Shown here: positions 8,460 to 49,096 of the stretch, in pieces
Numbering within the stretch: position 1 is the first letter of the stretch
How the letters are laid out: the number at the start of each line of letters is the position of its first letter
Source of the DNA: an uncultured archaeon
GTDB taxonomy: Archaea; Thermoproteota; Nitrososphaeria; Nitrososphaerales; Gagatemarchaeaceae
Length of the DNA: 64,000 bases
Assembly (NCBI GenBank): GCA_963817525.1
Contig: CAWFOU010000007.1
Coordinates: 800,001-864,000, forward strand
Direction: 5' to 3'
Program-made: the position numbers and the translations under genes
The notes under the pieces: model-generated
What the model was told of the DNA's origin: nothing
Seen by the model: only the letters and a program-made list of their open reading frames with translations
Database searches by the model: none

Positions 8460-8491
8460 TCACTCACACTTGTCATAGCCGCAATTCGTGC
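8460..8491 (-). pseudogene. stranded original 3' end of nrdJ (TNCGYDKCE*)
   Basis: Minus strand reads ACG AAT TGC GGC TAT GAC AAG TGT GAG TGA, matching the nrdJ C-terminus TNCGYSKCE* at 9026-9055. Confidence 0.9.
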
Positions 8492-9095
8492 TGGATGGGC
8501 CGATAAATACGGCGAAGCTCTGCTATAACGTTGGCTTCTCTGAGACTCTGCAACAGGTGCAAGCGGGAATTACCGATTTGTGAATTCTATACTCAGCCAT
8601 CTGGAATCCGTCGCATCTGCAAAGAATGCGATAATGAATACTCGAGAAACTATCACAAAACACACCCCGAATACGATAAGCGATATGAGAAGGAATACGC
8701 GAGGAGGAACCCGAAGAGAAGATGGGCAACGGCTTGCTTGTCAGGCCATCGTAGAAATGGATACATCACCGAAATCACATCTAAGGAACTCTACCAGATT
8801 GCCTGCAAAACGGAACTTTGCTTCATCTGTGGATGTCAGATAGACTGGCAGCTGGGTAACAAGGGTCACATGCACAACAAGAGTCCAACCCTAGACAGGC
8901 TGGACAACGGAGATACGATTAGGAGCGGTAACGTCCTAATCATGTGCTACCAATGCAACGCGACGAAGCGCGACAGAACCTTGAAGGAGTTCCTAGACTA
9001 TTGCAGGGTCGTTACTGCAAATTTGCTACTCACACTTAGAATACCCGCAATTGGTACATTTATAGCAACCGCTTTCGAAGATTATTGCATTCTCG
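8492..9095. mobile_element. HNH endonuclease cassette carrying a replacement nrdJ 3' end
   Basis: AT-rich island bounded by the stranded nrdJ end and an AT-rich recoded nrdJ terminus; right boundary approximate. Confidence 0.8.
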
Positions 9096-9202
9096 TTGCA
9101 GTCGGGGCAAGTGCCTCCGCGCATCAGGGGTACGGACGACTCCTTGTTGACCTTGCCCGAGGTGAGGACCTCGAGCGCCTTGGCCACCGCGTCAGGGATT
9201 GA
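8531..9202 (+). CDS. HNH (His-Me finger) zinc-binding endonuclease, phage-like
   Basis: CNRC/CKEC N-terminal zinc finger, CFIC, SPTLDRLD...GNVLIMCYQCNATK; AT-rich codons; reads through antisense into nrdJ. Confidence 0.85.
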   Translation: MASLRLCNRCKRELPICEFYTQPSGIRRICKECDNEYSRNYHKTHPEYDKRYEKEYARRNPKRRWATACLSGHRRNGYITEITSKELYQIACKTELCFICGCQIDWQLGNKGHMHNKSPTLDRLDNGDTIRSGNVLIMCYQCNATKRDRTLKEFLDYCRVVTANLLLTLRIPAIGTFIATAFEDYCILVAVGASASAHQGYGRLLVDLARGEDLERLGHRVRD

Positions 9203-11317
9203 GAGCAGCTGGACCCCCTCCTCCCAGGAGACGTACTTGCCGCGGATGCCCTTTAGCATCTTCACGACGCTCTGGATGTCCCCGCCGTGCTGGAGGTAGA
9301 GGCTGATGAGCCTGCCTATAGCCTCGGCGTCGGCTTTCTCGTCGCCCCCTAGCTTGCCCAGGGTCACGAAGACCTCCTTCAGGGTGCCCGCCTCGTCCGA
9401 GTTGGCGGTGACGTAGAGCCCTCCCTGGGGCAGCTTGAGCTTCAGCGTCCGCCCGGTCATCACCTTGGGCCTCTCGAAGGCCGTGGGCGCCTCCTGCTTC
9501 GGCTCGGCCCTAGCGGCCGCCGCGCCCGCCTCCTTCTTCTTGTCGACGTTGGCCGTCTCGAGGATGCCCTCCCTGCTCCCCTCCCTGTAGACCGTGATGC
9601 CCTTGCACCCGAGCTTCCACGCCTGGAAGTAGATCTTGGCGACCTCCTCCGTGGAGGTGTCCTGGGCGAGGTTCACCGTGCTGGAGATGGCGGTGTCGAT
9701 GTGCTTCTGGATCGCGGCCTGCATCTTCACCCTCATCTCGGGCTTGATCTGGTGGGCCGTCACGAAGTACGAGGGCAGGGAGTTCTCGTCGGTGATGCGG
9801 AATACGCGCATGTACTCCTTCACGAGCGGGTGCCAGACCTTGAACTCGCCCTCGCTCAGCGACTTGCTCCTCCTCGTGTAGTATAGCGCGAAGACCGGCT
9901 CGACCCCGCTGGACGACCCCACGAAGATGGAGCCAGACCCGACCGGGGGCACCGTCGTGAGCGCAGAGTTCCTGATCCCCTGCGCCCTGATCTTGTCCTT
10001 GACCTTCGAGTCGAGCCTCTTGATGAAGGGCTGCGCCAGGTGCTTGTCAGCGTCGAAGGCGGGCGCCGGGCCCTTCTCCGTCGCGAGGTCGGTGGAGTAG
10101 TCGTAGATGATGTTCGTGATCCTGCTGAAGAGGCTGTCGACGAAGTCGACCGTCGCCTCGTCGTCGTACTTCATCCCCAGCTTGATCAGCATGTCCCCTA
10201 GCCCCGTCGTCCCGACGCCCACCCTCCTGGACCACAGGGAGGCCTTCTTCTGCTGGGGGAGCGGGTGCTTGTCGGCGTTGTAGTCGAGGACGTTGTCGAG
10301 GAACCTCGTGGCGTGCTGAGCAGCCATGGTGAGGCCGCTCCAGTCTATGCTGGCGCGGTCGGTGAACGCGTCCTTCACGAACGAGCTCAGGTTTATCGAG
10401 CCCAGGCAGCAGCAGCCGTAGTTCTCCAAGGTCTGCTCGCTGCACGGGTTGACGCCCTCCACCGCCATGCCGTTGTACTCGGTCGTCGAGTCCCTCTTGA
10501 TGGTGTCCCAGAAGATCAGGCCGGGCTCGTCGCTCTGCCAGGCCGCCTTTACGAGCTGATTCCAAACGTCCCTGGCGCGGACAGTCTTCTCGAACTTCAC
10601 CTTCTCGTTCTGGAACCTGAGGGTGAAGTCGGAGTCCTTCTCCACCGCGTTCATGAACTCGTCGGTGATCTTGACGGAGATGTTCGCATAGTTGACCTTC
10701 TTCAGGTCCTTCTTGACGTTGATGAAGTCGAAGATGTCGGGGTGGTCTACGCGCAGCGTGATCATCAGGGCGCCCCTCCTGCCCGCCTGCCCTATCGTCC
10801 CCGTCGTGGTCGATAGGAGCTCCATGAACGAGACCGAGCCGGAGCTGAAGATCGCCGAGTTGTTGACGGGCGTGCCGCGCGGCCTCAGCAGGGAGATGTC
10901 CGTGCCGACTCCGCCGCCGAAGCTGTAGGTCCTCGCCGCCTCCTTGCACCAGTCGAAGATGCCCTCTATCGAGTCTTCCCTGATCTTGAAGAAGTAGCAG
11001 TTGAGGAGCGTAGACCGCCTGGGCTGGCCTGCGCCGAACATTATCCTTCCGCCGGGTACAAATTTGAAATCGTCAAGTAGCCAATAGAACTTCTCCGTCC
11101 ATTCGTTCCTCTTCTCGTCGTTTACCTCAACCGAGGCGAGCTCGCGCGCCACCCTCCGCCAGAGCTGCTTCGGGGTCGTCTCGACCTGCTTGCCTGACTC
11201 GTCCCTCAGCGCGTACTTTTCGTAGAAGACCCGCGACCTGAGCTCGTCGCCGCCGAAAGCCTCGAGCGTCTCCTTTGGTAGGACGACCTCGGGCGCCTTC
11301 TGGAGCTGCTGCTCCAT
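9026..11317 (-). CDS. nrdJ: class II (B12-dependent) ribonucleotide reductase with C-terminal TSCPD-like and zinc-ribbon domains
   Basis: FVPGGRI, LNCY, GGGVG, RRGALM, NISV, EPG, NPCSE, CCLGSINL; no ATP cone. ATG at 11317 chosen for its RBS; ORF is open to 11428. Confidence 0.93.
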   Translation of the reverse strand: MEQQLQKAPEVVLPKETLEAFGGDELRSRVFYEKYALRDESGKQVETTPKQLWRRVARELASVEVNDEKRNEWTEKFYWLLDDFKFVPGGRIMFGAGQPRRSTLLNCYFFKIREDSIEGIFDWCKEAARTYSFGGGVGTDISLLRPRGTPVNNSAIFSSGSVSFMELLSTTTGTIGQAGRRGALMITLRVDHPDIFDFINVKKDLKKVNYANISVKITDEFMNAVEKDSDFTLRFQNEKVKFEKTVRARDVWNQLVKAAWQSDEPGLIFWDTIKRDSTTEYNGMAVEGVNPCSEQTLENYGCCCLGSINLSSFVKDAFTDRASIDWSGLTMAAQHATRFLDNVLDYNADKHPLPQQKKASLWSRRVGVGTTGLGDMLIKLGMKYDDEATVDFVDSLFSRITNIIYDYSTDLATEKGPAPAFDADKHLAQPFIKRLDSKVKDKIRAQGIRNSALTTVPPVGSGSIFVGSSSGVEPVFALYYTRRSKSLSEGEFKVWHPLVKEYMRVFRITDENSLPSYFVTAHQIKPEMRVKMQAAIQKHIDTAISSTVNLAQDTSTEEVAKIYFQAWKLGCKGITVYREGSREGILETANVDKKKEAGAAAARAEPKQEAPTAFERPKVMTGRTLKLKLPQGGLYVTANSDEAGTLKEVFVTLGKLGGDEKADAEAIGRLISLYLQHGGDIQSVVKMLKGIRGKYVSWEEGVQLLSIPDAVAKALEVLTSGKVNKESSVPLMRGGTCPDCNENAIIFESGCYKCTNCGYSKCE

Positions 11318-11627
11318 CACCTCTCCTTCTTTTTTAGATTCAACCTCAGTTGTCAAATGTGAAATCGCGCACTCTCTCCAATCCTGACCTTTATCTGGTT
11401 CTTGGTGGACGATTCCTTCACCAGACATACCCTTAAATGTTATTTCGAGCGTGTGTTTCTCAAGAAAGCTACCGTTACCCGCGGCTTACGCTCATCATTT
11501 CATCGGTGAAGGAAAGATACTGGCATGCCCGAGTGAAAACTGGGGCCGGAGCCTTGGCGGGCTCACGTCAAACTCTGGCGGCGCTGGGGTCCTGGGAGTG
11601 ATCCGGGCGGTCCAAGAATCCCGATCG

Positions 11628-11655
11628 CATCCTGTCAACTCTAGTTGACAGGATG
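11628..11655. repeat. perfect 13-bp inverted repeat (operator or hairpin)
   Basis: CATCCTGTCAACT-CT-AGTTGACAGGATG between the regulator-like gene and nrdJ. Confidence 0.8.
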
Positions 11656-11674
11656 TCAAACTGTTTTTGCTAAA

Positions 11675-13762
11675 TTATTCCGCTGTCGAATATTGCGCGG
11701 TGGCGGTCGACCTGCACTTGGTGCACCTCTCGGTCTTCGCGGGCAATTTTGACCCGCAGTTGCGGCAGAACGACACTATCTTCTCGATCCCGAAGAACTC
11801 GAGCTTGGCAGTCGCGCCCATCGTGAGGTTGTATATCCCGCGCATGTCGAGCGACGTCGCGTCGAGGTAGACCGACAGCCCTGCCGCGGCGCCCTGGCTG
11901 AGCTTCGAGATGTAGCCCATCGTCTCGGCGTTGTTGAGGTCCTCCATCGTCAGCCTGGCTGCCTGCGAGTATCCCCTCTTCTCCAGGCTCTGGAGGTTCG
12001 CCCTGCCATACCTCTCCGAGTCGAGTGCGGCCAGCCTCCCCGCCCCCTCCGCCTCGATGAGCGCTATCCCCAGGCGCTCGCTTTTCCCCGACCTCTCGGC
12101 TGCGGACTGCGCGGCGGTCCCCAGTACCTTCGCGGCGAGCTCCGCCCTGGCGCCGGGGGCTGCGTCCTTGCTCAGGCCGAAGAGGGCCTCGTCGAGCCCC
12201 ACCAGGTTCATCACTAGCGGCATCTCGTCGGAGCTCACGTTGTCCGACCCGAAGCTCAGCGCGGGCAGCAGCCCCTTGTTCATCACCCTCTCCAGGAGGC
12301 GCCTTCGCGTGATCAGCGCGTCCGACGCGACTCCCATGAGCATGGATAGCTTCGCCCTGAAGTACGTCTCGTCCTGGTTCGACTCGTAGGAGAGCCTCGG
12401 GAGGTTGATGCTCAGGTTGTGCAGGACGCTGACGTTGTCGGCCTGGTGGTCCGCCGGGAGGATGTCGAGGTTGATGCCCAGGGAGCTCCTCTTCTGCCCT
12501 GAGGGGAAGAACGCGACCTTCCCGCCGTGAAACGCTATCGCCGCCGCGTCCTTGAGGTAGGAGCTGTCTTCCGACTTGTTCGGTTTCGCCAACAGGAGGC
12601 GGACCTCCGGCCTCGGGACCTGCTCGACGTAGTCCCTGTATGCGTCGAGGGTCGCGGCGAGGGTCTTCTCCATGAGCTCCCGCCCCGCGTCGTCCTTGGC
12701 GTAGATGTCCAGCTGCAGGGTCACCGAAGGCCTCTGGGTGGGCTGGAGCACCGAGGAGACCTGGTCGAAGAACTTGACGAGCGCGTCTGCCACGTCGCGC
12801 TTCGTCCTCGACCTGGTGAACTGCGCGAGGTACTGGAGGAAGTTCCTGTAGACAATCTCCTGGTTCGCCTCCTTCTTGATGAGGGGGGTGATGTTTGAGA
12901 TGACGTTGATGGCCTCCTCCAGGTTCCCGGGGCTCTGGAGCATCGGGACGCCGGGAAGCCTCCCCTTAGGGTTGAACCCCGACGCGCGGACTGAGAGGAG
13001 GTCGAGGAATATCGTGTCGGGGAGGAGCGCCCACGTCCCCGCCTCCGAGATGTGGATGTCCCCGTTGAGGTGGGCGTCAGAGACGTCCCTGGGGAGCTGC
13101 TCGAGGAGGAGGTACTCGGAGAAGACGGACTTGCCCGTCTGGTGCAGCAGGGACTCCGCGTCCCCGCCGTCGCCCCCCGCCTTGGCGAGGAGCTGGGTGA
13201 CGTCGAACACGGGGAGGCCGAGTCGCGTGAGCTTGTGCCTGTACTCCTCGAGGTTCTGCTCGACGAGGAGCGAGTTGACCATCTCCCTGATGAGGGGGGC
13301 GGTCAGGTACTGGGTCTGGAACTTGTAGAGGCGGGACTCCGTCTCGCTGGTGATCTTCTGGGCGAGCTCGACGGGCATCCCCGCCTCCTTGACCAGCGAC
13401 TGGAGGATCTTGTCCGCGTTGAACTCCTCCATGGCCTGGCGGGTAGTCCTGACGTAGAGCTTCCCGCTCTCGATGAGCGACTGCTCCTCTATCTGCCGCG
13501 TGAGGTTGAGGACGAGCCTCCCGAGGTTGGTGACCGTGTACTTGCGCTCCTGCCTGTTGAGCTGGATGAGGAGCTGGCGGACGAGCTTCCTCAGGTGGTA
13601 GGCGAACTTGCCCGACTCCTTCTTCGACTTGAATCCGGCGAGCGACTTTAGCGCGCTGTAGGTGAGAGGGCCCTTGACGTTGAGTATCTTTAGGATCTCC
13701 AGCCTCTGCGGAGAGGCGATGACGCTGTAAATTGTCCTGACACGGCGAGGAGCGGCTTGCAT
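11675..13762 (-). CDS. ArsR-type HTH + ATP-cone + NrdD-like domain protein
   Basis: N-terminal RLEILKIL...AYHLRKL HTH; EEFNADKI...LVKEAG ATP cone; AHLNGDIHI and SINLPRL NrdD-like motifs; ends at CxxC...CxxC without a glycyl-radical motif. Confidence 0.85.
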   Translation of the reverse strand: MQAAPRRVRTIYSVIASPQRLEILKILNVKGPLTYSALKSLAGFKSKKESGKFAYHLRKLVRQLLIQLNRQERKYTVTNLGRLVLNLTRQIEEQSLIESGKLYVRTTRQAMEEFNADKILQSLVKEAGMPVELAQKITSETESRLYKFQTQYLTAPLIREMVNSLLVEQNLEEYRHKLTRLGLPVFDVTQLLAKAGGDGGDAESLLHQTGKSVFSEYLLLEQLPRDVSDAHLNGDIHISEAGTWALLPDTIFLDLLSVRASGFNPKGRLPGVPMLQSPGNLEEAINVISNITPLIKKEANQEIVYRNFLQYLAQFTRSRTKRDVADALVKFFDQVSSVLQPTQRPSVTLQLDIYAKDDAGRELMEKTLAATLDAYRDYVEQVPRPEVRLLLAKPNKSEDSSYLKDAAAIAFHGGKVAFFPSGQKRSSLGINLDILPADHQADNVSVLHNLSINLPRLSYESNQDETYFRAKLSMLMGVASDALITRRRLLERVMNKGLLPALSFGSDNVSSDEMPLVMNLVGLDEALFGLSKDAAPGARAELAAKVLGTAAQSAAERSGKSERLGIALIEAEGAGRLAALDSERYGRANLQSLEKRGYSQAARLTMEDLNNAETMGYISKLSQGAAAGLSVYLDATSLDMRGIYNLTMGATAKLEFFGIEKIVSFCRNCGSKLPAKTERCTKCRSTATAQYSTAE

Positions 13763-13802
13763 GTCTTCACACGCATGGAGTCTAAACTATATAATGATGA
13801 CA

Positions 13803-14154
13803 TCACCGAGAGTCAAATAAAATCCACTCCCTCTGATGGAATGGCCGACGATATCGTAAGATTGGGCATAGTGTAGATTTCGCCCGCAGCACACGATGCT
13901 TACTTGACGAGTTCTTCCTCAGCTTGCTAAATGACCGAAGATTCTCAACCAGCTCCCAGAACTCATCGTAGCTCCTGCCTCTACGATAGACCTGCAAGAG
14001 CTGCTTGACAAGATCACTTTCGATTTCTGCTAGTTCTTCGGCCAGAGCGTTTCTTTCCTCCCGACTTACCAATAATCGCTTCCACCGCTTTCTCCGCTAG
14101 CTTCCGTCGCTCCTCTTTGGACAAGCTGGAAATCTTCTCCTCGTCGCTTAGCAT
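13803..14154 (-). CDS. two overlapping short AT-rich ORFs (14014-14154 and 13803-14072), possibly one frameshifted gene
   Basis: GGAGGAG before ATG at 14154; related motifs SKEERRKLAE and SREERNALAE. Confidence 0.4.
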
Positions 14155-14218
14155 TCTTCAAGCTCCTCCTTCCCGCCTATTACTCGTGCTCGATATTTAA
14201 ACGGCATCGGCGTGAATT

Positions 14219-14371
14219 TGGTGGGGTCGCCCGGATTTGAACCGGGGGTCTCAAGCGCGCTCGGACTAAGCAAAAGCGATTTTGCCGTAGTCTCCCAAGG
14301 CTTGAAGCCTAGACCAGACTAGCCCCGCGACTCGAGCAGCAGCCCGATTATGCGGCCTAGCCGACGACCCC
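14219..14371 (-). tRNA. tRNA-Pro(UGG) with two introns (15/16, 38 nt; 37/38, 36 nt), CCA encoded
   Basis: GGGGTCG/CGACCCC acceptor stem, CAAGC/GCTTG anticodon stem, TTCAAAT T-loop; canonical BHB at 37/38 (CTTG/CGAG helix, GACTA/TAGTC inner stem); relaxed BHB at 15/16. Confidence 0.92.
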
Positions 14372-14389
14372 CGGCGTCCGCATGGATGG

Positions 14390-14402
14390 TTTTTATTAAA
14401 AC
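14390..14402. promoter_or_regulatory. AT-rich TATA element, likely bidirectional (tRNA-Pro and LAGLIDADG gene)
   Basis: TTTTTATTAAAA about 20-30 nt from the tRNA 5' end and just upstream of the endonuclease ORF. Confidence 0.6.
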
Positions 14403-14416
14403 GATTCTAATCTATC

Positions 14417-14959
14417 GTGCGGGCTGTTTCAATACGCAGTTCCAGAATCGCAATAATGGCCTATCTAATCGGATTATTTGATGGCGAAGGCTGCCTGACA
14501 ATAAACGTCGAGAAAGACAAGAGGAAAGGAGCTATTTCAGAAGTCGGAGCATGGAGAATAATCCCATGCGTCCAATTCACCAATTCGGATAACGCCCTCG
14601 TCTTGGCGATTGACAGAATGCTCAAGACTCTTGGTCAGCATCCCACTATCCAAAGATATCCAAATGGGTCGGCTCACGTTAGACTCTGGCGTGCAAGTGA
14701 AATCGAGGCATTTTGTAGAGAAGCCATGATGTTTTCGAATGGCGCCAAATCGGCGCAGCTCTCCATATTCATCAACAAACTAATCCCCATTTTCGAATCT
14801 CGTCCTCTCATGGGCAAGAGAGGAGGAAGGATTTGGACCACGACGCTGTTTCTCCAAGCAATGACTCTGATAGATGAGATTAATCAATTCAAGAGAAGTC
14901 GAAGGACGGCTCGTCGTTACAGCCGGGCATACTTCGCAGCGCTCTGGAATTTGCAGTAG
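14417..14959 (+). CDS. single-motif LAGLIDADG homing endonuclease
   Basis: YLIGLFDGEGCL motif, VQFTNSD, 180 aa, AT-rich codons. Confidence 0.9.
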   Translation: MRAVSIRSSRIAIMAYLIGLFDGEGCLTINVEKDKRKGAISEVGAWRIIPCVQFTNSDNALVLAIDRMLKTLGQHPTIQRYPNGSAHVRLWRASEIEAFCREAMMFSNGAKSAQLSIFINKLIPIFESRPLMGKRGGRIWTTTLFLQAMTLIDEINQFKRSRRTARRYSRAYFAALWNLQ

Positions 14960-14964
14960 CCTCG

Positions 14965-14981
14965 GACTAGCCGACGACCCC
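14965..14981 (-). repeat. stranded duplicate of tRNA-Pro 5' end
   Basis: Minus strand GGGGTCGTCGGCTAGTC equals nt 1-17 of the spliced tRNA-Pro; lies 5 nt past the LAGLIDADG stop. Confidence 0.9.
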
Positions 14982-15009
14982 TACGCCCCCCTCTCCGCCC
15001 ATTCGTTAG

Positions 15010-15591
15010 TTATGCATTCCTCTTTGAGACGAAGGGACTCCCCTCGACGAAGAAGCGCCACGGCAGCTCCTTCGCCTTGCTTATCCCTATCCTGGCCGAC
15101 GCCTTGACGGGCACGACCCCCTCCTTATCGACGACGTAGATCCTCTTGGAGGTCACCAGGTCCTCACCGTTGAAGCCCCCGTCGATCTCGAGGGCCTGCG
15201 TGAGGTTTCCCGGCCCGTTGGCGAGTCTCTGGAGCTCGGACACGCCTCGGTTTCTCATCATCTTCTCGACCCCCTCCATCGGCTCCAAGGCCCGGATCAA
15301 GATCCCCCCGGGCTCCCCAGGCTTCTCGGCGGTGAAGTTCAGGCACCAGTGGTTCCCGTAGGAGAAGAACATGTAGACGTGCCCGGCCTCCCCGAACATG
15401 ACGGCGCTCCTCTTGGTCGCCCTCCGATACGAGTGGCTCGCCGGGTCGTCGGTGCCCCGATAGGCCTCCGCCTCCACGATCCTCCCCGAGAGCACGCTCC
15501 TCCCCACCCTTCTCACGAGCACGCACCCCAGGAGCTCCCGCGCGACGTCGAGAGTGTATCGAGAGTAGAAGCTACGGCCGAGGCGGTCCAC
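15010..15591 (-). CDS. mpg: 3-methyladenine DNA glycosylase (MPG/AAG family)
   Basis: VARELLG, GRIVEAEAY, DPASHS, YGNHWCLN, GILIRALEP, NGPGNLTQAL, RIGI. Confidence 0.93.
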   Translation of the reverse strand: MDRLGRSFYSRYTLDVARELLGCVLVRRVGRSVLSGRIVEAEAYRGTDDPASHSYRRATKRSAVMFGEAGHVYMFFSYGNHWCLNFTAEKPGEPGGILIRALEPMEGVEKMMRNRGVSELQRLANGPGNLTQALEIDGGFNGEDLVTSKRIYVVDKEGVVPVKASARIGISKAKELPWRFFVEGSPFVSKRNA

Positions 15592-17574: not shown

Positions 17575-17714
17575 TGGTGGGGACGGCCGGACTTGAACCG
17601 ACGGATCACAGGTATCGCCGCTCCGATGGGAAATCATCCACGCAAGCGTGTCATCAAACTTTTTGTCGTTTGACCACTGGAGCCTGTTGCCATGCCTGTC
17701 TAGGCTACGTCCCC
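17575..17714 (-). tRNA. tRNA-Trp(CCA) with about 63-nt intron at 37/38
   Basis: GGGGACG/CGTCCCC acceptor stem, ACAGG-CT-CCA-G...A-CCTGT, TTCAAGT T-loop, ACCA end. Confidence 0.9.
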
Positions 17715-33917: not shown

Positions 33918-35006
33918 TTGATAGTAAGCGAGTTCATACCAAAGCAGGGACTCTGCAGGCTCACCGTAGAATCTCCGGACGACCTCTGGACCCTCCGCAG
34001 GCTCCTCGCGCCCGGCGACGTCGTCGTCACCAAGAGCTCGAGGGTCTTGAAGAGGGAGGGCGACTACACGAGGCCCGACAAAGGGGAGCGCATCAAGGTC
34101 ACCATAGCCCTCGAGGTGGAGGGGATCTCCCTCGATAGCAGCGTCGGGAGGGTCAGGATACGTGGGAGGATAGTGGAGGCGAGCGACGAGAGCGTCACCA
34201 AGACCGGCTCCCACTCGATCATCATCTCCCCCGGCCAGGAGCTCACCATCAGGAAGCAGCGCTGGACCTCCTCCGACACAAGGATACTCAACTCCTCGAC
34301 CGCCACGGAGCGCAGGTTCCTCCTCGTCGCGGTGGACAGGAGGGACGCGGGGGTGGGACTCCTCGCTGGTTCGCACCTCACCATCGTCTCCACCTTGGAG
34401 TCGGGCGCCTCCGGGAAGGGCGGGTCGAACCAGAAGGAGGTCGACATGCAGCCCTACTTCAGGAAGGTCGTCGACCTACTAAAGGCCACCTGGCGCGAGG
34501 GGGACGTCGTGGTTGTCGCGGGGCCTGGGAACACCAAGCTCCCCCTGGAGAACCTCATCAAGAAGGACCCCGACCTGAGGAAGAACGAGGTCCTGGTGGA
34601 GGGGTTCGACCTCTCGGGGTCCGATGGCGTCCGAGCCCTTGTAAAGTCCGACGGGTTCAGGAAGGTCGCCAGGGACAGCGTCCTCGTCGAGGTCCAGGAG
34701 GCCGTGGAGGAGGCCATCAGGAGGATCTCGCGGGGCGAGAGGCGGGTCGCCTACACGCTTCCCCGCGTCTCCGAGGCCGCGAGGGCCGGCGCCGTAGAGA
34801 CGTGCGTCGTCTCGGACGACGTCTTCTCTAGCAGCGTCGACGAGAACCAGCTCGTGGCGACGCTCAACCTGATCGAGGAGAAGGGAGGGAAGGTCTTCCT
34901 CTGCGACTCTTCCCTGGAGACGGGCAAACAGGTCTCCGCGCTGGGAGGGATGGTCGCGATCTTGCGCTACGACCTCTCGAACGCGCTCTCCGGCTCTAGC
35001 CGATGA
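33918..35006 (+). CDS. pelA: pelota/aDom34 mRNA surveillance protein
   Basis: ESPDDLWTL, RIRGRI, GSHS, AGPG, LGGMVAILRY. Confidence 0.9.
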   Translation: MIVSEFIPKQGLCRLTVESPDDLWTLRRLLAPGDVVVTKSSRVLKREGDYTRPDKGERIKVTIALEVEGISLDSSVGRVRIRGRIVEASDESVTKTGSHSIIISPGQELTIRKQRWTSSDTRILNSSTATERRFLLVAVDRRDAGVGLLAGSHLTIVSTLESGASGKGGSNQKEVDMQPYFRKVVDLLKATWREGDVVVVAGPGNTKLPLENLIKKDPDLRKNEVLVEGFDLSGSDGVRALVKSDGFRKVARDSVLVEVQEAVEEAIRRISRGERRVAYTLPRVSEAARAGAVETCVVSDDVFSSSVDENQLVATLNLIEEKGGKVFLCDSSLETGKQVSALGGMVAILRYDLSNALSGSSR

Positions 35007-42383: not shown

Positions 42384-42388
42384 CTCTC

Positions 42389-43510
42389 TCAGCCTCCGTA
42401 GAGGAAGCACTCGACGTAGTGGCCCGGCCGCGCCTCGACCAGCGGCGGCTTGGAGAGGGGGCACTTCTCGAAGGCGGACGGGCAGCGAGGATGGAAGCGG
42501 CAGCCGCTCGGCGGGTAGATGAGGTTCGGCACCGACCCCTTGATGGTGCTCAGCTCCCCCTTCACCGCGTCCGGCCGGGGTATCGCGGCGAGAAGGCCCT
42601 GGGTGTAGGGGTGAAGAGGGTTCTTGAAGAGCTCGCCGACCTCCGCGACCTCGACGATGTTCCCGGCGTACATCACGGCCACCCGGTCGCACACCTCCGC
42701 CACGACCGCTAGGTCGTGGGTGATTAGGAGGATCGACGCGTCGATCTTGGTCTTGAGCTCCGTCAGCAGCTTGAGGATCTGAGCCTGGACGGTCACATCG
42801 AGCGCGGTCGTTATCTCGTCGGCGATAAGGAGTGCCGGCCTCCTGACGAGCGCCATCGCTATCATCGCCCTCTGGCGCATCCCGCCGGACAGCTCGAAGG
42901 GATACGTCTTGAACATCCTCTCGGGCTCGGGCAGCCTGACGGTTCCCAGGATCGCGACGGCGTACGCCTTTGAGAGCCTCTTGAACTCCCCCCTGCTGAG
43001 GGCTTCGTGGGATGGAAGGGCCTCGAGCTTGTTCTTTTCCCGGCTCTCCTCCTCCGTCAGCGACCCGCCTTGCGCTGCCTTCTCGAGCGCCTCCAGCCTC
43101 GCGGCGACGACCACGGGCGTGAAGACACGCCGGTCGGTCTCTAGGATCTCTATTATCTGGGAGCCCACAGTGAGGACAGGGTTCAGGTAGGTCAGGGGGT
43201 CCTGGAAGACCATCGCCATCTCCCTGAGCCTGGCCATCCTGATTTCGCCCTGCTTCTCCGTGAGGAGGTCCTTTCCGTCCAGGAATATCTCCCCGCCGAC
43301 CACCTCCGCGTTCGGAGGTAGGAGTCCTTCTATGGACAGGGCGGTGACAGACTTGCCCGAACCGGACTCGCCCACTAGCCCGAGGACCTCTCCCCTCCTC
43401 ACGGAGAGATTCACCCCATCCAGGGCCTTCACCTGCCCCGCGAACGTTTGGAAGTTCACCTGGAGGTTCTTGACCAGGAGGATCTCCCCGCCGGAGTGCT
43501 GAGAGCTCAT
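42389..43510 (-). CDS. oppD: oligo/dipeptide ABC ATPase
   Basis: GESGSGKS, LSGGMRQR, HPYT, GCRFHPRC. Confidence 0.92.
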   Translation of the reverse strand: MSSQHSGGEILLVKNLQVNFQTFAGQVKALDGVNLSVRRGEVLGLVGESGSGKSVTALSIEGLLPPNAEVVGGEIFLDGKDLLTEKQGEIRMARLREMAMVFQDPLTYLNPVLTVGSQIIEILETDRRVFTPVVVAARLEALEKAAQGGSLTEEESREKNKLEALPSHEALSRGEFKRLSKAYAVAILGTVRLPEPERMFKTYPFELSGGMRQRAMIAMALVRRPALLIADEITTALDVTVQAQILKLLTELKTKIDASILLITHDLAVVAEVCDRVAVMYAGNIVEVAEVGELFKNPLHPYTQGLLAAIPRPDAVKGELSTIKGSVPNLIYPPSGCRFHPRCPSAFEKCPLSKPPLVEARPGHYVECFLYGG

Positions 43511-44427
43511 CTCCTCAGCCTCGGGTCGAGGATGTCCCTCAGGCCGTCCCCGAGGAGGTTGAAGCCGAGCGAGATGAGGAGTATCGTGAGTCCAGGGAAG
43601 ATTATGAGCCACGGCGCGGTGAAGAAGTACTGGCTCCCGAGGCTGGCCAAGTTCCCGAGCTCGGGCAGGAGGGGGCTCGGGCTGAGCCCTATGAATGTCA
43701 GCGCGGAGACCGTCAGGATGACGCTCCCGATGTCCAGGGTCGCCTGCACCATGAGCGGGTAAATCGAGTTCGGGACGATGTGCCTGAACAGGATCCTGAG
43801 CCTGCCCGCGCCTATGGACCGCAGGCTCTCGACATACGGCCTCTCCTTCTCGCTCAGCACCTGCGACCTGACGAGCCTCACATACGTCGGCCACCAGATC
43901 AGGACCACCGCGGCGGTGAGGACGGGGAGCGTCCTCCCGAAGACCACCATGAAGACTATCGCAAGGAGTATCCCCGGGACAGCCAGGAATATGTCGGTCA
44001 CACGTAGGATCGCCTCGTCGACTATCCCGCCGGCGTATGACGCTGTCGCCCCGAAGACGATGCCTATCGTGACGGCGGAGAGCACAACCTCGAGCGCGAT
44101 CTGGAGGTCGACAGGGATGGCGAGGACGATCATCTGGAGGAGGTTCCTCCCGTAGGAGTCCGTCCCCAGAGGATACTGGGTCGGGCACCTTGCGATGTTC
44201 GCGTTCCCCCAGCCGAAGAGCGGGTTGTTCCAGCAGTTCTTCAGGCTCGGGTGCGTGAGCTGCCAGAGCGCCGGGTTTACCAGGACGTGGGACAGGAGCG
44301 CGGTCGCGATGCTGCCCACGGAGAGCACCAGACCTGCGAGGACCAACGGGTTCTTACCTAAGAGGTGGAGCGCGTACCTGAGGTCGGCTGACCGCTTTAC
44401 GTCGGTGGCTGGCTCGGTTTCTGTCAT
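43507..44427 (-). CDS. oppC: oligo/dipeptide ABC permease
   Basis: LGTDSYGRN, GDGLRDILDPR. Confidence 0.92.
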   Translation of the reverse strand: MTETEPATDVKRSADLRYALHLLGKNPLVLAGLVLSVGSIATALLSHVLVNPALWQLTHPSLKNCWNNPLFGWGNANIARCPTQYPLGTDSYGRNLLQMIVLAIPVDLQIALEVVLSAVTIGIVFGATASYAGGIVDEAILRVTDIFLAVPGILLAIVFMVVFGRTLPVLTAAVVLIWWPTYVRLVRSQVLSEKERPYVESLRSIGAGRLRILFRHIVPNSIYPLMVQATLDIGSVILTVSALTFIGLSPSPLLPELGNLASLGSQYFFTAPWLIIFPGLTILLISLGFNLLGDGLRDILDPRLRR

Positions 44428-44437
44428 GGCTCTCGGC

Positions 44438-45553
44438 TCAATAGCGGATCCGCGGGTCCAGCTTCGCGTAGATTATGTCGACGGCGAGGTTCGTCACCAC
44501 GATGATGAGCGCGGTCACGAGGACGTAGAGTTCGATGAAGTTGATGTCAAACACGTTGACCGCCTGGAGGGAGGTGTATCCGACGCCGGGAAGGTCGAAG
44601 ACAATCTCGATTACGACGACCCCTCCGAAGAGGAAGGCCGTGAGGAGACCCGCGACGGTGACGGCGGGCAGGAGGGCGTTCCTCAGGGCGTGCCTGTAGA
44701 CCACCACGCGCCCCTGGAGCCCCTTCGATTTGGCCAGCAGGATGTAGTCCTGCTTCAGGACCTCTAGCATGCTCGACCTGACTATCCTGGTGAGCGCCCC
44801 GATCGACGTTATCGAGAGGGTGATGGCCGGGAGGATCATCGCCACGAAAGAGTCCCAGGCGTAGTGCAGGTTACCCGAGACGATGCCGTCGATGATGGGC
44901 GCCCCGGTCACCGCCTTGACCGTGCCCGGGTTGTGGAAGCATATGGCGCAGCCGACGGCGAGCGCGCCACTCCCCGGGAGGAGGCCCAGGCCGCCGACGC
45001 GCACATAGAGCACGAAGATGATCAGGAGGACGTAGCCGAACCAGAACTGCGGTATCGAATAACCCCCGAGCGAGACTATGCGCGAGATGTGGTCGGGCAG
45101 CTTGTTGTTGTGGGTGGCAGAGACGATCCCCAGAGGGATGCCGATTGCGATGGTGAGTATCGCTCCCATCACGGCGAGCTGGGCCGTGAAGGGAAACCTG
45201 CTGAAGAAAACGGAGACAGTCTTCTGCCCCGTTATCGAGGGAAGGAGGGTGTAGCCCCAGTTCCCCTTCAGGACGTTGGTGAGCCAGGCTATGTACTGGG
45301 ACCAAACGGGCACCAGGCAGCTATGCTGGAGGGCCGAGAACGCCTGAAAAGAAGGGCAGGAGTTGGTCGCGACTCCGAGCGACTGGGCGAGCACGAGCTT
45401 CTGCTGGGCGTCCATCCTTGGGGTGATGTAAGGAGCGAGGGCAAAGCTGGGAGGAAGAAACCCTCGCGTGAGGTAGAACATCATGAGGCTGATTCCGAAC
45501 AGTACGAGTCCCATCAGGAGTATCCTTCTGATGGCGTACTCGTAGAGCTTCAA
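44438..45553 (-). CDS. oppB: oligo/dipeptide ABC permease
   Basis: RSSMLEVL..DY..AKSKGL, HALRNA, LDPRIRY. Confidence 0.92.
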   Translation of the reverse strand: MKLYEYAIRRILLMGLVLFGISLMMFYLTRGFLPPSFALAPYITPRMDAQQKLVLAQSLGVATNSCPSFQAFSALQHSCLVPVWSQYIAWLTNVLKGNWGYTLLPSITGQKTVSVFFSRFPFTAQLAVMGAILTIAIGIPLGIVSATHNNKLPDHISRIVSLGGYSIPQFWFGYVLLIIFVLYVRVGGLGLLPGSGALAVGCAICFHNPGTVKAVTGAPIIDGIVSGNLHYAWDSFVAMILPAITLSITSIGALTRIVRSSMLEVLKQDYILLAKSKGLQGRVVVYRHALRNALLPAVTVAGLLTAFLFGGVVVIEIVFDLPGVGYTSLQAVNVFDINFIELYVLVTALIIVVTNLAVDIIYAKLDPRIRY

Positions 45554-45692
45554 TTGCTATAATCGCCGTTTTCGAATATTTGAGGATTCGCGGGAGGCCG
45601 CGGAATCCCGGGTCGCCGCGAAGAATAGGGTGGAGGGGCCGCTCAGCGCGGCCCCGAAGTTCGCCACAACTAAGCGGAGGGCCCCTCCCTCT

Positions 45693-47855
45693 CTAGTAGA
45701 GGGTGGCGAAGTACTCGGGCCCTACGCCGTTGCCTGCAGCGCTGCCTAGGCTCGTGTTCCAATACATGCCTTGGACGTTGGAGGTCATCGTCACGAAGTT
45801 GACGACGTTGAAGGTCCAAAGGTACATGACCTCCTTGTTCGAGAGCGCGTTCATCTGGTCGCTGTACTGGATGAGCGCTGGAAGGTTGTTCGAGGCGCTG
45901 GCGTTGAGGCTCTGCTGGTAGAGGGCGTTCATGGCGGGGAAGTTCATCCCCGACGTCCCTGGATAGGTGCCCGGATACGCTAGCATGTTGCCTGTGAAGT
46001 CGAGGACCCACGGGTAGTCGTCAATCCATCCGAGCGCATACATGTAGAGGTGGGTAGGCTCCGAGAACGCCTCTGTGATCATCTGCCCTGTCGGGAGAGG
46101 CTGCACCACGACGTTCAGCCCCATGTTGTAGGTGGTGCTGATGTTGTTGATGGTGCCGGCCATGTCGTTGAAGATGGCCTCGTCAGCTGTGTCTCCCGAC
46201 CCGTAGACCAGCGCGACCGTTTGGGACACCGGGCCCGCGCACACCCCGTTAGCAAACGTCTTGCATCCGAATGTGTTGTTGAAGAGTCCCGCGGGAGCTC
46301 TAGTCCCGTTGACGAAGTTGAAGGACGTGATGGGGTTTTGCATAGCCTGTATCAGGAGCTGTGCGGCTGCGTCCGGGTTGTAGCTGTAGGCCGGCGTTAT
46401 GCTAGAGTTGTAGACTCCGGCAGGGGGTAGTCCAGGCGGAACCACGTTATCGGCGACCTTGCCCAGGTTGTCGTTGTTGGAGATGAGCTCTTGGGTCATG
46501 TTGACCGCGTCCGAGAAGGCCAACCTGATCCTCTGGTCAGCGAAAGGCTGCCACGAGTAAAAGGCGCCGGTCAGCGGGCTCGAGACGTTGGTGCCGTAGG
46601 GGTCGAACAGGGTGGAGAGGAAGGGATAGGGCCCGTATAGGGATACTCCTGGGAGGCTGGACGTCAGGTTCCCAGTGCTCAGCCATGTGCTCTTCGAGGC
46701 CACGTCGTAGAGGTTCGTGCCCTCGACGTCTATCGCCATCGCCTGCCCGGGCGTCTTGGCGGCGTTCTGGAGGTCGATCTCACGGGTCGTCTGGTCCGCC
46801 ACGTACTTGAAGACGACAGTCTTGATCTGCGCCTCTATCTTCTGGCCACCAGCGAACTGGTAGGGGGCGCCCCAGTAGCTCGGGTTGGCCTGGAGCGTGA
46901 TTGTGTTCGTCGAAAGGTCATCGCCCGTCATCGTGTATGGCCCGGTTCCTGCCGTGGAGCCCTGGGTCGAGGTGTTGAGGTAAGTGCCTGCGCATCCCGA
47001 GGGGGTCGAACCTGAGTTGCAGGTCGCCGACATGTCGTCGAAGTATTCGATAGCCTTCTGCGTGAAGTTCCCGGTCAGCGTCGTATAGGGCAGCGTGTAC
47101 CCGGCGCTAGCCGCGGTCCAAAGGCCGAGGTCGTGCTGCTCCACATAGCCCGGCGCCAGCTGGTCGACGATCGGGTTGGAGAACAAGTAGGGGAACGCGG
47201 CGTTAGGGTTCTCCACGTTAACGTTGAAGGTGTACTGGCCGGTGACTTGGACGAAGTTCTGGGCCAGCCACTCGTTGACATAGGCGGTCCCATATGTCTG
47301 GGCCCCGCTGAAGAACGTGCTGAGGGACTGGTTCGAGAGCTGCTGGATGAGCCAGCTGGACTGGGTGCCGTGGCCCACCGGAGTGCTGCCGTCGAGTATC
47401 AGCGCCCTGTTGAGGTTGAACCAGACCACCGAAGAGTTAAGCTGCTCGCTGTCGGCGAAGCTTATCCCTGACCTGAGCGTGAAGGTGTACTGCGTCCCCG
47501 CGGTGTTCCCCGAGTAGCTCGATGCCAGCCATGGGATGACGCACGTGGCGCACGAGGAGTTGTACCAGAGAATAGGCTCGTAGACGTTCTGCATCACGTT
47601 GTAGTCATACGAGTAATAGGAGACCGCCGGGTCGAGATACTGCGCAGTCTCTCCCGCCTCGTACGTGATCGAGGCTGGAACGGCTCCCGATGTGGTTGCC
47701 GTGCCTGTGCCGGTCGAGGACATCGACGTCGTGGTGGAGCTCGAGCTCTTCGAGCTGAGTTCTACGGCCGCTATCGCTGCGACCACCAGGATTACCAGGA
47801 CCGCGGCTATCGTCACATTCCTCGAGATTGCATGCCTATTGGGGTTGGTTTCCAA
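45693..47855 (-). CDS. oppA: family 5 ABC substrate-binding protein
   Basis: LDPA, NVYE, PWLA, YTFTLR.GI.F.D, GTGPY, ANPSYWG. Confidence 0.88.
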   Translation of the reverse strand: METNPNRHAISRNVTIAAVLVILVVAAIAAVELSSKSSSSTTTSMSSTGTGTATTSGAVPASITYEAGETAQYLDPAVSYYSYDYNVMQNVYEPILWYNSSCATCVIPWLASSYSGNTAGTQYTFTLRSGISFADSEQLNSSVVWFNLNRALILDGSTPVGHGTQSSWLIQQLSNQSLSTFFSGAQTYGTAYVNEWLAQNFVQVTGQYTFNVNVENPNAAFPYLFSNPIVDQLAPGYVEQHDLGLWTAASAGYTLPYTTLTGNFTQKAIEYFDDMSATCNSGSTPSGCAGTYLNTSTQGSTAGTGPYTMTGDDLSTNTITLQANPSYWGAPYQFAGGQKIEAQIKTVVFKYVADQTTREIDLQNAAKTPGQAMAIDVEGTNLYDVASKSTWLSTGNLTSSLPGVSLYGPYPFLSTLFDPYGTNVSSPLTGAFYSWQPFADQRIRLAFSDAVNMTQELISNNDNLGKVADNVVPPGLPPAGVYNSSITPAYSYNPDAAAQLLIQAMQNPITSFNFVNGTRAPAGLFNNTFGCKTFANGVCAGPVSQTVALVYGSGDTADEAIFNDMAGTINNISTTYNMGLNVVVQPLPTGQMITEAFSEPTHLYMYALGWIDDYPWVLDFTGNMLAYPGTYPGTSGMNFPAMNALYQQSLNASASNNLPALIQYSDQMNALSNKEVMYLWTFNVVNFVTMTSNVQGMYWNTSLGSAAGNGVGPEYFATLY

Positions 47856-47859
47856 ATAG

Positions 47860-47883
47860 AATCAGGGCTACTTAGCCCTGATT
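47860..47883. promoter_or_regulatory. 11-bp inverted repeat between TATA and oppA start
   Basis: AATCAGGGCTA-CT-TAGCCCTGATT. Confidence 0.6.
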
Positions 47884-48076
47884 TTAGGCAAATCTAGTAT
47901 AAGAACGTATCCAAACGGATGCTTGTTATATTGCGCGGCTATGTTAAGTGAAAATCGGAAAGCTTCGGGCTTTACGATTGTGAGAGAGGCAATCGATCCC
48001 TGTCCTTGGTGGCAGGCAGACGGAGTGTAAGGCTGCCACCGTTTTTTTATATTGGCGAGAGACGGGCCGTGCCTAG

Positions 48077-48195
48077 GCGGGGGTCGCCTAGCCTGGTAGG
48101 GCGAAGGATAGGATTAGGGTGTCACAGCCCAATCCCCTGAGTGCTAATCCTTTGTCCGCAAGGACCCGTGGGTTCGAATCCCACTCCCCGCGCCA
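48077..48195 (+). tRNA. tRNA-Ser(GCU) with 32-nt intron at 32/33 (48110-48141)
   Basis: AAGGA-T^T-GCT-AA-TCCTT after removal of a GGATT/AATCC-closed intron; long variable arm GTCC-GCAA-GGAC; discriminator G; CCA. Confidence 0.85.
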
Positions 48196-48224
48196 GCCGA
48201 TACACCCAGAGGACTCGCCGGTCC

Positions 48225-49096
48225 TCATCTCGCAGACTCGCGTCTAGCGAGGCGGGCGTTCTTCCTTAGTATCGTGAATCCGATTATTCGCGTAAATCGT
48301 GGAAGGCTCCTGGCTCTCACATATATTTCGTAGCAGTCAGATTTCCTAATGTACGTCTTCTTCCCTTTGACGAGTATGCTTCCCTTCCTGGTCTTGATCC
48401 TTGGACCCGTTGTTTCCACGCCAACTCGTGCTAGGAGCGTGCGTACATATTCCAAAAGGTCCAGGTTGGTGTTAGATGCAGTGACAACTCCCTTCTCGTC
48501 GACGCATCCTTCAGAATCGAAGAAGCCCCTTAGGAAGGCAGACATGCATTTGACATCGTACTCGATCCAGGCCCTTAAGTCATGGAGAGGTCTCCTGAGG
48601 AATCTGTAGAGGAGGTAACTACTAACATCTAGCTGATAGTCGTTCGTTTTGGAATCCTTCCAATCTTGTGCCGAGGTGTCTGAAGAATGTGCGAAAGACA
48701 CCGGTTGAACTCCTGAACAAAATCGAGATCGTTTGCCTTCAGGCGAATCCTGTAGTTATAGTGGTTGAGGTTTAGCGAGCCATCTCCCGTTTGAACGCCG
48801 ATTATGTATGCTAATTCTGGACAAAATGTGGCTTTGAACCTTCGAACTCGACCAGCAGGTGAGTGTTTGCGATTCACCCAGTCGGATACGATAGATTTTG
48901 ATAGTCTCACCCCGCACTGTCGATCAATCTCCCTGATGATTTGCGAATATGTGAAGGACTTCTCGCGAAGCGATAGCACGAGGTGGTAGAGCGAGGTTTG
49001 CGATTCCAGAGTTCTGTGCTTCCTTGGGCGAGGATTGAACCGGTCTCGCTTGGCAAGGTCGTAGACGTGTAGCTTGGATGATTGTTGACTCTCCAC
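48225..49096 (-). pseudogene. double-motif LAGLIDADG endonuclease with N-terminal HTH, frameshifted near 48663
   Basis: LAYIIGVQTGDGSL in ORF 48629-49096, AFLRGFFDSEGCV in ORF 48225-48701; frames join at HKI/WKD with 1 nt missing; AT-rich. Confidence 0.85.

Follow-up and report, generated by a model that had tools for sequence, protein, structure and literature searches.

The window analyzed here is a stretch of 64,000 nucleotides (G000:C7:800001-864000) from a metagenome-assembled genome (MAG) of an uncultured archaeon. This MAG, which we call G000, comprises 2.82 Mb in 15 contigs, with a completeness of 95% and a contamination estimate of 8.75%, and its genus is placed in the non-ammonia-oxidizing soil and peat Thaumarchaeota (Nitrososphaeria). 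Three small nuclease genes in the window abut host genes. An HNH gene lies at the 3' end of nrdJ, a LAGLIDADG gene (LAG1) lies at the 5' end of a tRNA-Pro gene, and a second LAGLIDADG gene (LAG2) lies at the 3' end of a tRNA-Ser gene. Their GC content is 47-49%, versus 61.8% for the whole window. An earlier note on this DNA had proposed that each of the first two sits between two versions of the end of its neighbor, one joined to the gene and altered, the other a stranded stub. We compared these loci with 22 other species of the same genus.

The features of the nrdJ locus are as follows (ORF, open reading frame):

8460..8489, minus strand: nrdJ stub, consisting of the last 9 codons and the stop (30 nt, TNCGYDKCE*), from translation and alignment
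8490..8530, plus strand: putative promoter spacer of the HNH gene, abutting the stub, with a TATA-like box (gataaata) at about 8504-8511, from the sequence
8531..9202, plus strand: HNH nuclease ORF, 223 amino acids, TTG start, from PHROG matches, predicted fold, and orthologues
9026..9100, minus strand: recoded AT-rich working 3' end of nrdJ, probably carried with the cassette, from GC content and codon comparison
9026..11428, minus strand: nrdJ, B12-dependent ribonucleotide reductase, the host gene (Pfam Ribonuc_red_lgC, E = 6e-108; Ribonuc_red_lgN; TSCPD)

The HNH ORF does sit between the working end of nrdJ, with its stop codon at 9026, and the stub at 8460..8489. The working C-terminus (...CTNCGYSKCE* / ...CYKCTNCGYSKCE*) is in frame with the gene body, and the GC content falls from 62% in the gene body to 40% over the final 75 nt. 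(The HNH gene itself is 47.5% GC.) A TATTTAAC-type box is kept at the same position in relatives, and the spacer between stub and ORF would be the promoter of the HNH gene. The conserved part of the HNH protein ends at about 9040. The stop codon that its relatives use has been lost in G000, and the frame runs on for 54 codons, antisense, into the 3' end of nrdJ.

The HNH ORF did not match any family in Pfam or NCBIfam. Its best match was PHROG 1035 ("endonuclease VII", E = 3.9e-25), and it also matched eight PHROGs that are named HNH endonuclease. A profile search of the Protein Data Bank (PDB) gave just a weak match to PacI (E = 0.05). PacI was also the top Foldseek match (E = 1.2e-3, probability 1.00) of an AlphaFold model that had a pLDDT of 81.3 and was built on a 6-sequence alignment. 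The second Foldseek match was the Gme HNH nicking enzyme (rmsd of 2.2 over 76 columns), and the TM-scores to these two structures are modest (0.33-0.43 on the query). The invariant columns of the HNH alignment include C7, C10, C30, C97, C100, C139, C142, H73, N110, N126, N134, and N143. By profile and predicted fold, the ORF is a member of the HNH (beta-beta-alpha-metal) nucleases.

We could compare the 3' end of nrdJ in 21 genomes of the genus. (We excluded duplicated pieces and the locus of G012, which lies at the beginning of a contig.) An HNH gene is present at this site in 9 of the 21 genomes (G000, G006, G018, G020, G015, G001, G019, G017, and G016), and the site is empty in the other 12. 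The carriers' HNH genes are convergent with nrdJ and end a few nucleotides past its stop codon, and the orthologues are 55-77% identical. Two of them have decayed: the gene in G017 contains stop codons, and the one in G016 is reduced to a 62-amino-acid remnant.

The end of nrdJ differs between occupied and empty alleles, as expected from the claim that the copy joined to the gene is altered at the break. All 9 occupied alleles end with TAY TCN AAR TGT GAR and the stop, and 8 of the 12 empty alleles end with TAC/TAT AGC/AGT AAG TGC GAR and the stop. (The remaining empty alleles combine TCN with TGC in three cases and have the occupied type in one, G021.) Put differently, the cysteine codon is TGT in 9/9 occupied versus 1/12 empty alleles, and the serine codon is TCN in 9/9 versus 4/12. 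The stubs lie about 530 nt past the nrdJ stop codon, just beyond the HNH start. We found them in four of the genus's occupied alleles (G000, G020, G006, and G019), and three further occupied genomes have a stub at loci L099 and L098 and a degenerate one at L095. The stubs of G020, G006, and L099 have the empty-type codons (AGC..TGC). If the stubs are left behind by the nuclease, relatives that lack the nuclease should lack them too, and we saw no nrdJ stub in any of the 12 empty alleles.

Three comparisons show what separates the two kinds of allele. First, the flanks of G016 and G004 are 97% identical, and the difference between these loci is the 109-nt HNH remnant plus the recoding of the last ~34 nt of nrdJ. 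Second, nrdJ from G001 has 10 synonymous differences from its sister G011 in the last 51 nt, but just 2 in the preceding 45. Third, in the empty allele of G022, a stub-type end is fused to the AT-rich tract that occupied alleles have upstream, and its nrdJ end aligns to two places in G000, the working end and the stub (8460..8489). Such a hybrid would be expected if the working end had recombined with the stub.

Beyond the HNH start, G001 (L093) and G015 (L097) have more AT-rich DNA instead of a stub, and these tracts share the motif GTTATCAATTGTAA. The motif is also found downstream of nrdJ in G016 and G004 and could mark another small element.

The second cassette has a similar layout, but at the 5' end of a tRNA gene (BHB, bulge-helix-bulge):

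15010..15591, minus strand: MPG gene (Pfam, E = 3.5e-65)
14965..14981, minus strand: stub of tRNA-Pro exon 1, 15 nt exact plus 2 nt matching exon 2, from an exact repeat
14456..14959, plus strand: LAG1, single-motif LAGLIDADG gene, 167 amino acids from an ATG (Pfam; the frame is open from a GTG at 14417)
14372..14455, no strand: AT-rich spacer between the divergent tRNA-Pro and LAG1, with a TATA-like box at about 14391-14402, from the sequence
14219..14371, minus strand: working tRNA-Pro(UGG) with two introns, from in-silico intron removal, exon parse, and BHB motifs
14357-14371, minus strand: exon 1, from the exon parse
14319-14356, minus strand: D-arm intron of 38 nt at site 15/16, relaxed HBh' motif
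14294-14318, minus strand: exon 2, from the exon parse
about 14258-14293, minus strand: canonical intron of 36 nt at site 37/38, strict hBHBh' motif
14219 to about 14257, minus strand: exon 3 with CCA, from the exon parse

Read along the minus strand, the order is MPG, the native promoter sequence, the stub, LAG1 in antisense, the AT-rich spacer, and tRNA-Pro(UGG). The LAGLIDADG gene is thus between two tRNA-Pro 5' ends, as had been claimed, and the repeat is exact over 15 nt. The repeated sequence CTAGCCGACGACCCC, at 14357-14371 and 14967-14981, is the sole direct repeat of at least 10 nt that we found around the locus, and by our own estimate, the chance of such a 15-nt repeat is about 3e-4. 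The stub is still behind the native promoter and MPG: the upstream sequence GCATAACTAACGA... is common to the regions upstream of the native tRNA-Pro in G018, G020, and G022. The spacer between the working gene and LAG1 is probably a bidirectional promoter, judging from its TATA-like box. LAG1 has the motif LIGLFDGEG and a GC content of 47%, and it matches LAGLIDADG_3 (31.7 bits; cut-off 22.5) and LAGLIDADG_1 (26.3 bits; cut-off 23.1).

These tRNA genes are difficult to call. A first ARAGORN run called zero tRNAs in the window, so our calls are from its intron mode (run from Python). Even there, tRNA-Pro(UGG) was labeled as Ala, which is wrong, as removing the introns gives Pro(UGG). A search of the window with Rfam's gathering cut-offs found tRNA-Trp and 5S rRNA only, and an E-value search of 47800-49300 found only weak tRNA-Sec and plastid matches over tRNA-Ser. 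Hence, stubs and multi-intron tRNAs are liable to be misannotated in such MAGs. The tRNA-Trp gene (17575..17714) has no LAGLIDADG neighbor; the adjoining gene encodes a membrane protein.

The folding of the tRNA-Pro precursor (z = -3.4) and its BHB motifs support both introns. The canonical intron has the central helix CUUG/CGAG, an inner helix of 5 bp, and an outer helix of 7 bp (strict hBHBh'). The D-arm intron has the central helix GGCU/GGCU, an inner helix of 4 bp, and no outer helix (relaxed HBh'), and cutting at this junction yields tRNA-Pro(UGG). A caveat is that our scan for BHB motifs is unspecific: spurious motifs are common in its output (23 in the Pro precursor), and it reported no motif at the expected junctions of tRNA-Ser and tRNA-Trp. 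We parsed the exons of tRNA-Pro in 18 genomes of the genus (17 relatives and G000) and in the metagenome contig L102, and introns are found at three sites:

Site D, between nucleotides 15/16: intron in 10/18 genomes
Site A, between nucleotides 29/30: intron in 14/18 genomes
Site C, between nucleotides 37/38: intron in 6/18 genomes

A BHB motif is present at the correct junction in 10/11 (D), 13/14 (A), and 7/7 (C) of the sequences, and the sequences of the helices vary. Eight of the 18 genomes have an intron-less allele at 15/16, and tRNA-Pro from G006 is wholly intron-free.

The same layout is found in L102, which has a 60%-identical orthologue of LAG1, a comparable TATA-like box upstream of the inner exon 1, and the same 15-nt stub. 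Since the stubs of G000 and L102 stop at the same nucleotide, the duplication ends exactly at the intron site. The intron at this point is the tRNA's counterpart to the altered nrdJ end, and if a homing endonuclease is associated with an intron, 15/16 is the place at which it should cut alleles that lack the intron.

Several other sequences resemble parts of the cassette or lie near it. Matches to exon 1 at window position 34996 and at C1:530258 (1 mismatch each) are coding sequence, not stubs. The flank of the G000 stub shares 9 nt, TAGTCCGAG, with the canonical intron's end; L102 lacks this match, which we put down to chance or, at most, take as a weak hint of a long intron (see below). Downstream of tRNA-Pro, at 13803..14154 on the minus strand, are two overlapping ORFs of 46 and 89 amino acids, which are rich in Glu, Lys, and Arg and are conserved in G020. 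These look like one small gene that is frameshifted in G000. The end of MPG is another gene end that has been duplicated: in G020 (L041) and G022 (L042), its last ~17 nt (GAAGAGGAACGCATA...) are present twice, and an insert of about 380 nt separates it from tRNA-Pro. The insert in G020 includes a 111-amino-acid ORF, and no recognized nuclease is encoded there. Finally, G000 has a tRNA-Pro(CGG) gene (G000:C7:608116-608267) with inserts at 15/16, 29/30, and 37/38, which ARAGORN miscalls as Val. Its exon 1 and 3' end are the same as those of tRNA-Pro(UGG), and no nuclease adjoins it.

A second, unrelated family of LAGLIDADG genes, which we call LAG-B, has also entered tRNA-Pro. In G018 and G010, LAG-B is on the strand of the tRNA, has different break points, and is flanked by a longer 5' stub (positions 1 to ~29-42) and a complete copy of the tRNA. 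LAG-B is also found in G002, without a clear stub, and as a 22-amino-acid remnant in G017. (LAG-B from G018 does not match Pfam; we link it to the family because it is homologous to a pair of ORFs in G000, one of which matches LAGLIDADG_3.) Overall, three of the 18 tRNA-Pro loci (G000, G018, and G010) have two copies of exon 1, and in all three, a LAGLIDADG ORF lies between the copies. A second copy is absent from all 13 tRNA-Pro loci that have no nuclease.

We also found LAGLIDADG genes at other tRNAs. G000 has 26 matches to LAGLIDADG_3, of which 17 are in frames of at least 409 amino acids and 9 are in frames of under 300 amino acids. Eight of the nine free-standing frames lie inside a tRNA called by ARAGORN or no more than 110 nt away from one, while we estimate a chance expectation of about 0.5% per gene. 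Adjacency to tRNAs is also seen for 3/7 free-standing frames in G007 and for at least 5/8 in G018. We did not find any free-standing LAGLIDADG_3 match in three complete genomes that belong to the same order but to other families.

Two of these loci resemble the tRNA-Pro cassette. At G000:C1:676465-677360 (L118), tRNA-Val(CAC) on the minus strand is followed by a 263-amino-acid LAGLIDADG ORF on the plus strand and then by a stub of the 5' half of tRNA-Val. This stub covers positions 1 to ~43, has a different acceptor stem (GGGCCGA versus GGGTCAG), and has its own TATA-like box. The layout is that of the tRNA-Pro cassette minus the intron. At G000:C1:82453-83371 (L119), ARAGORN calls a tRNA-Glu with an 838-nt intron. 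Its sequence suggests three parts instead: an 11-nt duplicate of the 5' end (CAGCCCGGTGG) as the stub, a 263-amino-acid LAGLIDADG ORF in the same orientation, and a complete copy of the tRNA whose insert directly follows the duplicated segment.

An alternative is that the tRNA-Pro cassette is one long BHB intron, comparable to the rRNA introns of Crenarchaeota that contain LAGLIDADG genes. Under this explanation, a nuclease-bearing intron lies at 15/16, the outer "stub" is the original exon 1, and everything from there to exon 2 is intron; the internal promoter and the second copy of exon 1 were gained later, and both transcripts could yield tRNA-Pro. In favor of this, the stub corresponds precisely to exon 1, its end coincides with the intron site in two lineages, and the native promoter sequence is kept upstream of it. 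The central helix of the HBh' motif uses nucleotides 10-13 of exon 1, which are present in the stub too, and by manual reading, 3 of the 4 inner-helix pairs are still possible from the context of the G000 stub. But the LAG1 ORF is antisense to the tRNA, and the inner copy of exon 1 has its own TATA-like box, so a long transcript is not needed. Also, the other tRNA cassettes cannot be introns: the stub of tRNA-Val has a different acceptor stem, and the stubs beside LAG-B extend from position 1 to ~29-42. We consider a long intron to be unlikely.

Could the duplications be artifacts of assembly or binning, or could the inserts be small integrase islands that target tRNAs? The contamination estimate of the MAG is not negligible, and tRNA genes are classic integration sites. 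However, independent MAGs and contigs show these layouts again: the nrdJ stub is present in 6 genomes, and tRNA-Pro layouts of this kind are present in G018, G010, and L102. In a single study that may include the source sample, Logan contigs of four runs span both tRNA-Pro junctions with 0 differences. As for islands, the inserts are merely 0.55-1.0 kb. The description of these elements as minimal cassettes, with a nuclease, its own TATA-like box, and a gene end, also held up, as there is no integrase or transposase family among the neighboring genes and flanking ORFs that we checked. Artifacts or islands are therefore very improbable.

The third cassette is at tRNA-Ser:

48077..48195, plus strand: tRNA-Ser(GCU) with a 32-nt intron (48110-48141) between nucleotides 32/33, from ARAGORN in intron mode
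48196..49199, no strand: 1004-nt insertion from the 3' end of tRNA-Ser to the stop codon of hisI, from alignment to relatives
48225..49096, minus strand: LAG2, double-motif LAGLIDADG gene, frameshifted into 48629..49096 and 48225..48701 (LAGLIDADG_3)

The boundaries of this insertion are clear from G020, G009, and G022: homology breaks off at the end of tRNA-Ser, and after a gap of 1-5 nt, it continues at hisI, whose identity Pfam supports (PRA-CH). The second half of LAG2 matches LAGLIDADG_3 with E = 7e-15 (55.5 bits). An intact paralogue of 280 amino acids is encoded in one frame at C7:269607-270449, and intact LAG2 paralogues adjoin two other intron-bearing tRNAs in G000. A LAG2 homologue is at the same place in 10 of 18 loci from the genus. 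The alignment of occupied and empty alleles that the earlier note called for thus gives presence or absence at the same site for both HNH (9/21) and LAG2 (10/18).

The earlier note had described LAG2 as a LAGLIDADG gene beside another tRNA with a non-canonical intron. The intron at 32/33 of tRNA-Ser stands, with the exon junction defined by the intron-less genes of G008, G022, G018, and G014, but the locus is not a cassette of the same kind, as no gene end has been replaced. The association of introns with LAG2 is not clean either: tRNA-Ser has an intron at one position or another in 9/10 carriers, but also in 6/8 non-carriers. In several genomes (G010, G015, G018, G014, G013, G019, and G011, among loci L064-L078), tRNA-Ser(GCU) has inserts in the T-loop or T-arm besides or instead of the intron at 32/33.

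Taken together, these three elements are likely to be free-standing homing-endonuclease cassettes, of which HNH and LAG1 leave stubs and bring replacement gene ends. We infer the cleavage, the cut position, the immunity, and the route of repair from the sequences. The nuclease would cut the neighboring gene in an allele that lacks the nuclease, and repair would copy the cassette from an occupied allele. For HNH and LAG1, the founding insertion may have been one-sided: homology inside the gene would prime copying from the donor on one side, while the other broken end would be joined, without homology, to the opposite side of the cassette. What lies past the cut in the gene (the last 30 nt of nrdJ or the first 15 nt of tRNA-Pro) would then survive as a stub that marks the cut site, and the working gene would be completed by the end that the cassette carries.

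That imported end appears to be altered at the presumed cut. In nrdJ, the alteration is synonymous recoding (Ser AGC to TCN and Cys TGC to TGT), and in tRNA-Pro, the counterpart would be the BHB intron at the break (15/16). Because the imported end differs at the presumed cut site, occupied alleles should no longer be cut. Once present, the stub and its flank could serve as a homologous arm in ordinary homing. The nuclease would be removed again when the two copies recombine, as in G022 and perhaps in the intron-only alleles of tRNA-Pro. The cassette at tRNA-Ser is in a spacer of a few nucleotides, so it would not need a replacement end, and it is already in decay.

Several observations weigh against this account. 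First, the earlier note had tied the altered ends to nuclease carriers, and this failed. Nine genomes of the genus that lack LAG1 have the D-arm intron, as does the paralogue tRNA-Pro(CGG) in G000, so the intron need not have arrived with the cassette, and the empty allele of G021 bears an occupied-type nrdJ end. (Loss of the nuclease can explain both.) Second, the duplicated ends are sometimes short or missing. The tRNA-Pro stub is merely 15-17 nt, no nrdJ stub is seen in 5/9 occupied alleles of the genus, and no duplicated end was found at the tRNA-Ser cassette by searching for exact 10-mers or by local alignment (G000 and two paralogous loci; 9/9 carriers). Third, we did not find an orthologue of LAG1 in the 22 congeners, and a metagenome scan found one (L102). 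As LAG1 is known from G000 and L102 only, its homing cycle is not seen directly. Fourth, because the HNH stop codon is lost and LAG2 is frameshifted in G000, part of the set may be inactive there. Fifth, the tree of HNH (7 sequences), which is poorly resolved and lacks starred branches, broadly follows that of nrdJ, so old insertions and losses could explain the patchy distribution. In the absence of incongruence between these trees, we do not claim recent horizontal transfer of HNH.

The last two points lead to another explanation, in which the cassettes are old and immobile: each descends from a single ancestral insertion and is inherited vertically with ongoing loss, and the altered ends and stubs are fossils of homing that no longer occurs. 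Besides the congruent trees and the lost stop codon, this would fit the decayed copies (HNH in G016 and G017, and LAG2 in G000) and the low identity of HNH orthologues (55-77%, as compared to 80-95% for the C-termini of nrdJ). On the other hand, most HNH and LAG1 frames are open despite long divergence, and very close pairs of genomes differ in occupancy. The exon-1 stubs of G000 and L102 are identical at 15/15 nt while the nucleases share 60%, which fits recent entry into fresh alleles. And two unrelated LAGLIDADG families have invaded the same tRNA gene. Although the cassettes could be nothing but relics, we doubt it.

If homing does explain the cassettes, it might also explain where the introns came from. 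Tentatively, free-standing LAGLIDADG cassettes may create and spread non-canonical BHB introns in archaeal tRNA genes, although we would sooner bet against this than for it. The cassette's immune tRNA allele would have an intron that interrupts the nuclease's target, and homing would install the nuclease, the intron, and the duplicated exon together. Recombination between the exon copies would then delete the nuclease, so that only a short orphan intron remains downstream of the native promoter, as seen in G008, G020, and G022. If this is true, it would account both for the variable number of tRNA-Pro introns in the genus (0 to 3, at three sites) and for the position of nearly all free-standing LAGLIDADG genes of G000 next to tRNAs. 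It would also provide a testable route to intron gain at non-canonical positions of archaeal tRNAs, which is a long-standing puzzle.

The layout of the nrdJ cassette has a precedent in fungal mitochondria. As described in PMC3630166, mobile ORFs (mORFs) with duplicated C-termini are found at atp6, atp9, cox2, and nad3 of Glomus and at atp6 of Allomyces macrogynus. There, a LAGLIDADG or GIY-YIG ORF enters the 3' part of the gene along with a foreign gene end whose differences are mostly synonymous; the foreign end is in frame, and the native end is downstream, unexpressed, and closer to relatives than the inserted end is (PMC3630166). Similarly, the nrdJ cassette has a working end in frame, a stub beyond HNH, and (in G020, G006, and L099) stub codons of the empty type. 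Unlike in the fungal mORFs, the nuclease at nrdJ is an HNH protein whose gene is convergent with nrdJ rather than fused in frame; also, the duplicate is 30 nt, and the setting is an archaeal chromosome. The same logic operates here at the 5' ends of tRNAs as well, with the promoter carried along.

There are also similarities to free-standing nucleases of phages, which are known for intronless homing (PMC2790892, PMC2988022). T4-like phages contain the seg and mob genes; SegB is in a tRNA cluster and mobE is beside nrd genes. These intergenic nucleases have their own promoters and are thought to cut a nearby conserved gene in the rival's allele and to spread by gene conversion along with co-converted flanks. 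The cassettes in G000 resemble them in favoring the neighborhoods of ribonucleotide reductase and tRNA genes, and the tRNA-Ser cassette is the closest match. In contrast, stubs and replacement ends are present here but are not known from the phage elements, whose genomes meet in co-infection.

In collaborative homing (PMC6083498), the free-standing nuclease F-CphI acts together with a group I intron in psbA of cyanophage S-PM2. Like F-CphI, LAG1 lies outside of the intron, and the HNH protein from G000 matches an "endonuclease VII" PHROG. F-CphI, which is encoded beside the intron-containing gene, is said to have an Endo VII-type motif and to cut the intron-less insertion site, so that the intron confers immunity and travels along. 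The differences are that the intron in tRNA-Pro is a BHB intron, spliced by proteins, and that it is accompanied by a LAGLIDADG nuclease and a duplicated exon 1.

Archaeal rRNA genes have BHB introns that contain LAGLIDADG genes in the sense orientation (I-DmoI and I-PorI), whose target is the intron-less junction. LAG1 is likewise an archaeal LAGLIDADG gene that is linked to a BHB intron, but it is outside of this short intron, antisense, and by a tRNA instead of an rRNA. In fractured genes, a free-standing homing endonuclease lies between the halves of a gene with a split intein (PMC2677866). As in fractured genes, the nuclease is within the span of the host gene, with no intron or contiguous intein. 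But fractured genes rely on trans-splicing of the protein halves, while here the gene is whole and a stub is left.

In the literature that we searched, we did not find a description of archaeal LAGLIDADG or HNH cassettes with duplicated gene ends, although one may have been published. The genome paper for the Gagatemarchaeaceae does not mention homing, introns, LAGLIDADG, endonucleases, or inteins. The idea of a new archaeal class of elements therefore holds in part: the layout is known from fungal mitochondrial mobile ORFs, but the archaeal chromosomal setting, the 5' ends of tRNAs as the part that is replaced, and the link to non-canonical tRNA introns are new. This would extend intronless homing with replacement of gene ends from fungal mitochondria to archaeal chromosomes and to tRNA 5' ends. 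As tiny cassettes (0.55-1.0 kb) are found at many tRNA loci in one genus, in occupied, decayed, lost, and empty states, they would form a natural system for studying the homing cycle. They could also yield HNH and LAGLIDADG nucleases with new specificities for rare sites, and the boundaries of the stubs allow their targets to be guessed.

Elsewhere in the window, at 56882..59218 on the plus strand, purD (GARS_A and GARS_C) is interrupted by a LAGLIDADG_3 domain, which is presumably part of an intein.

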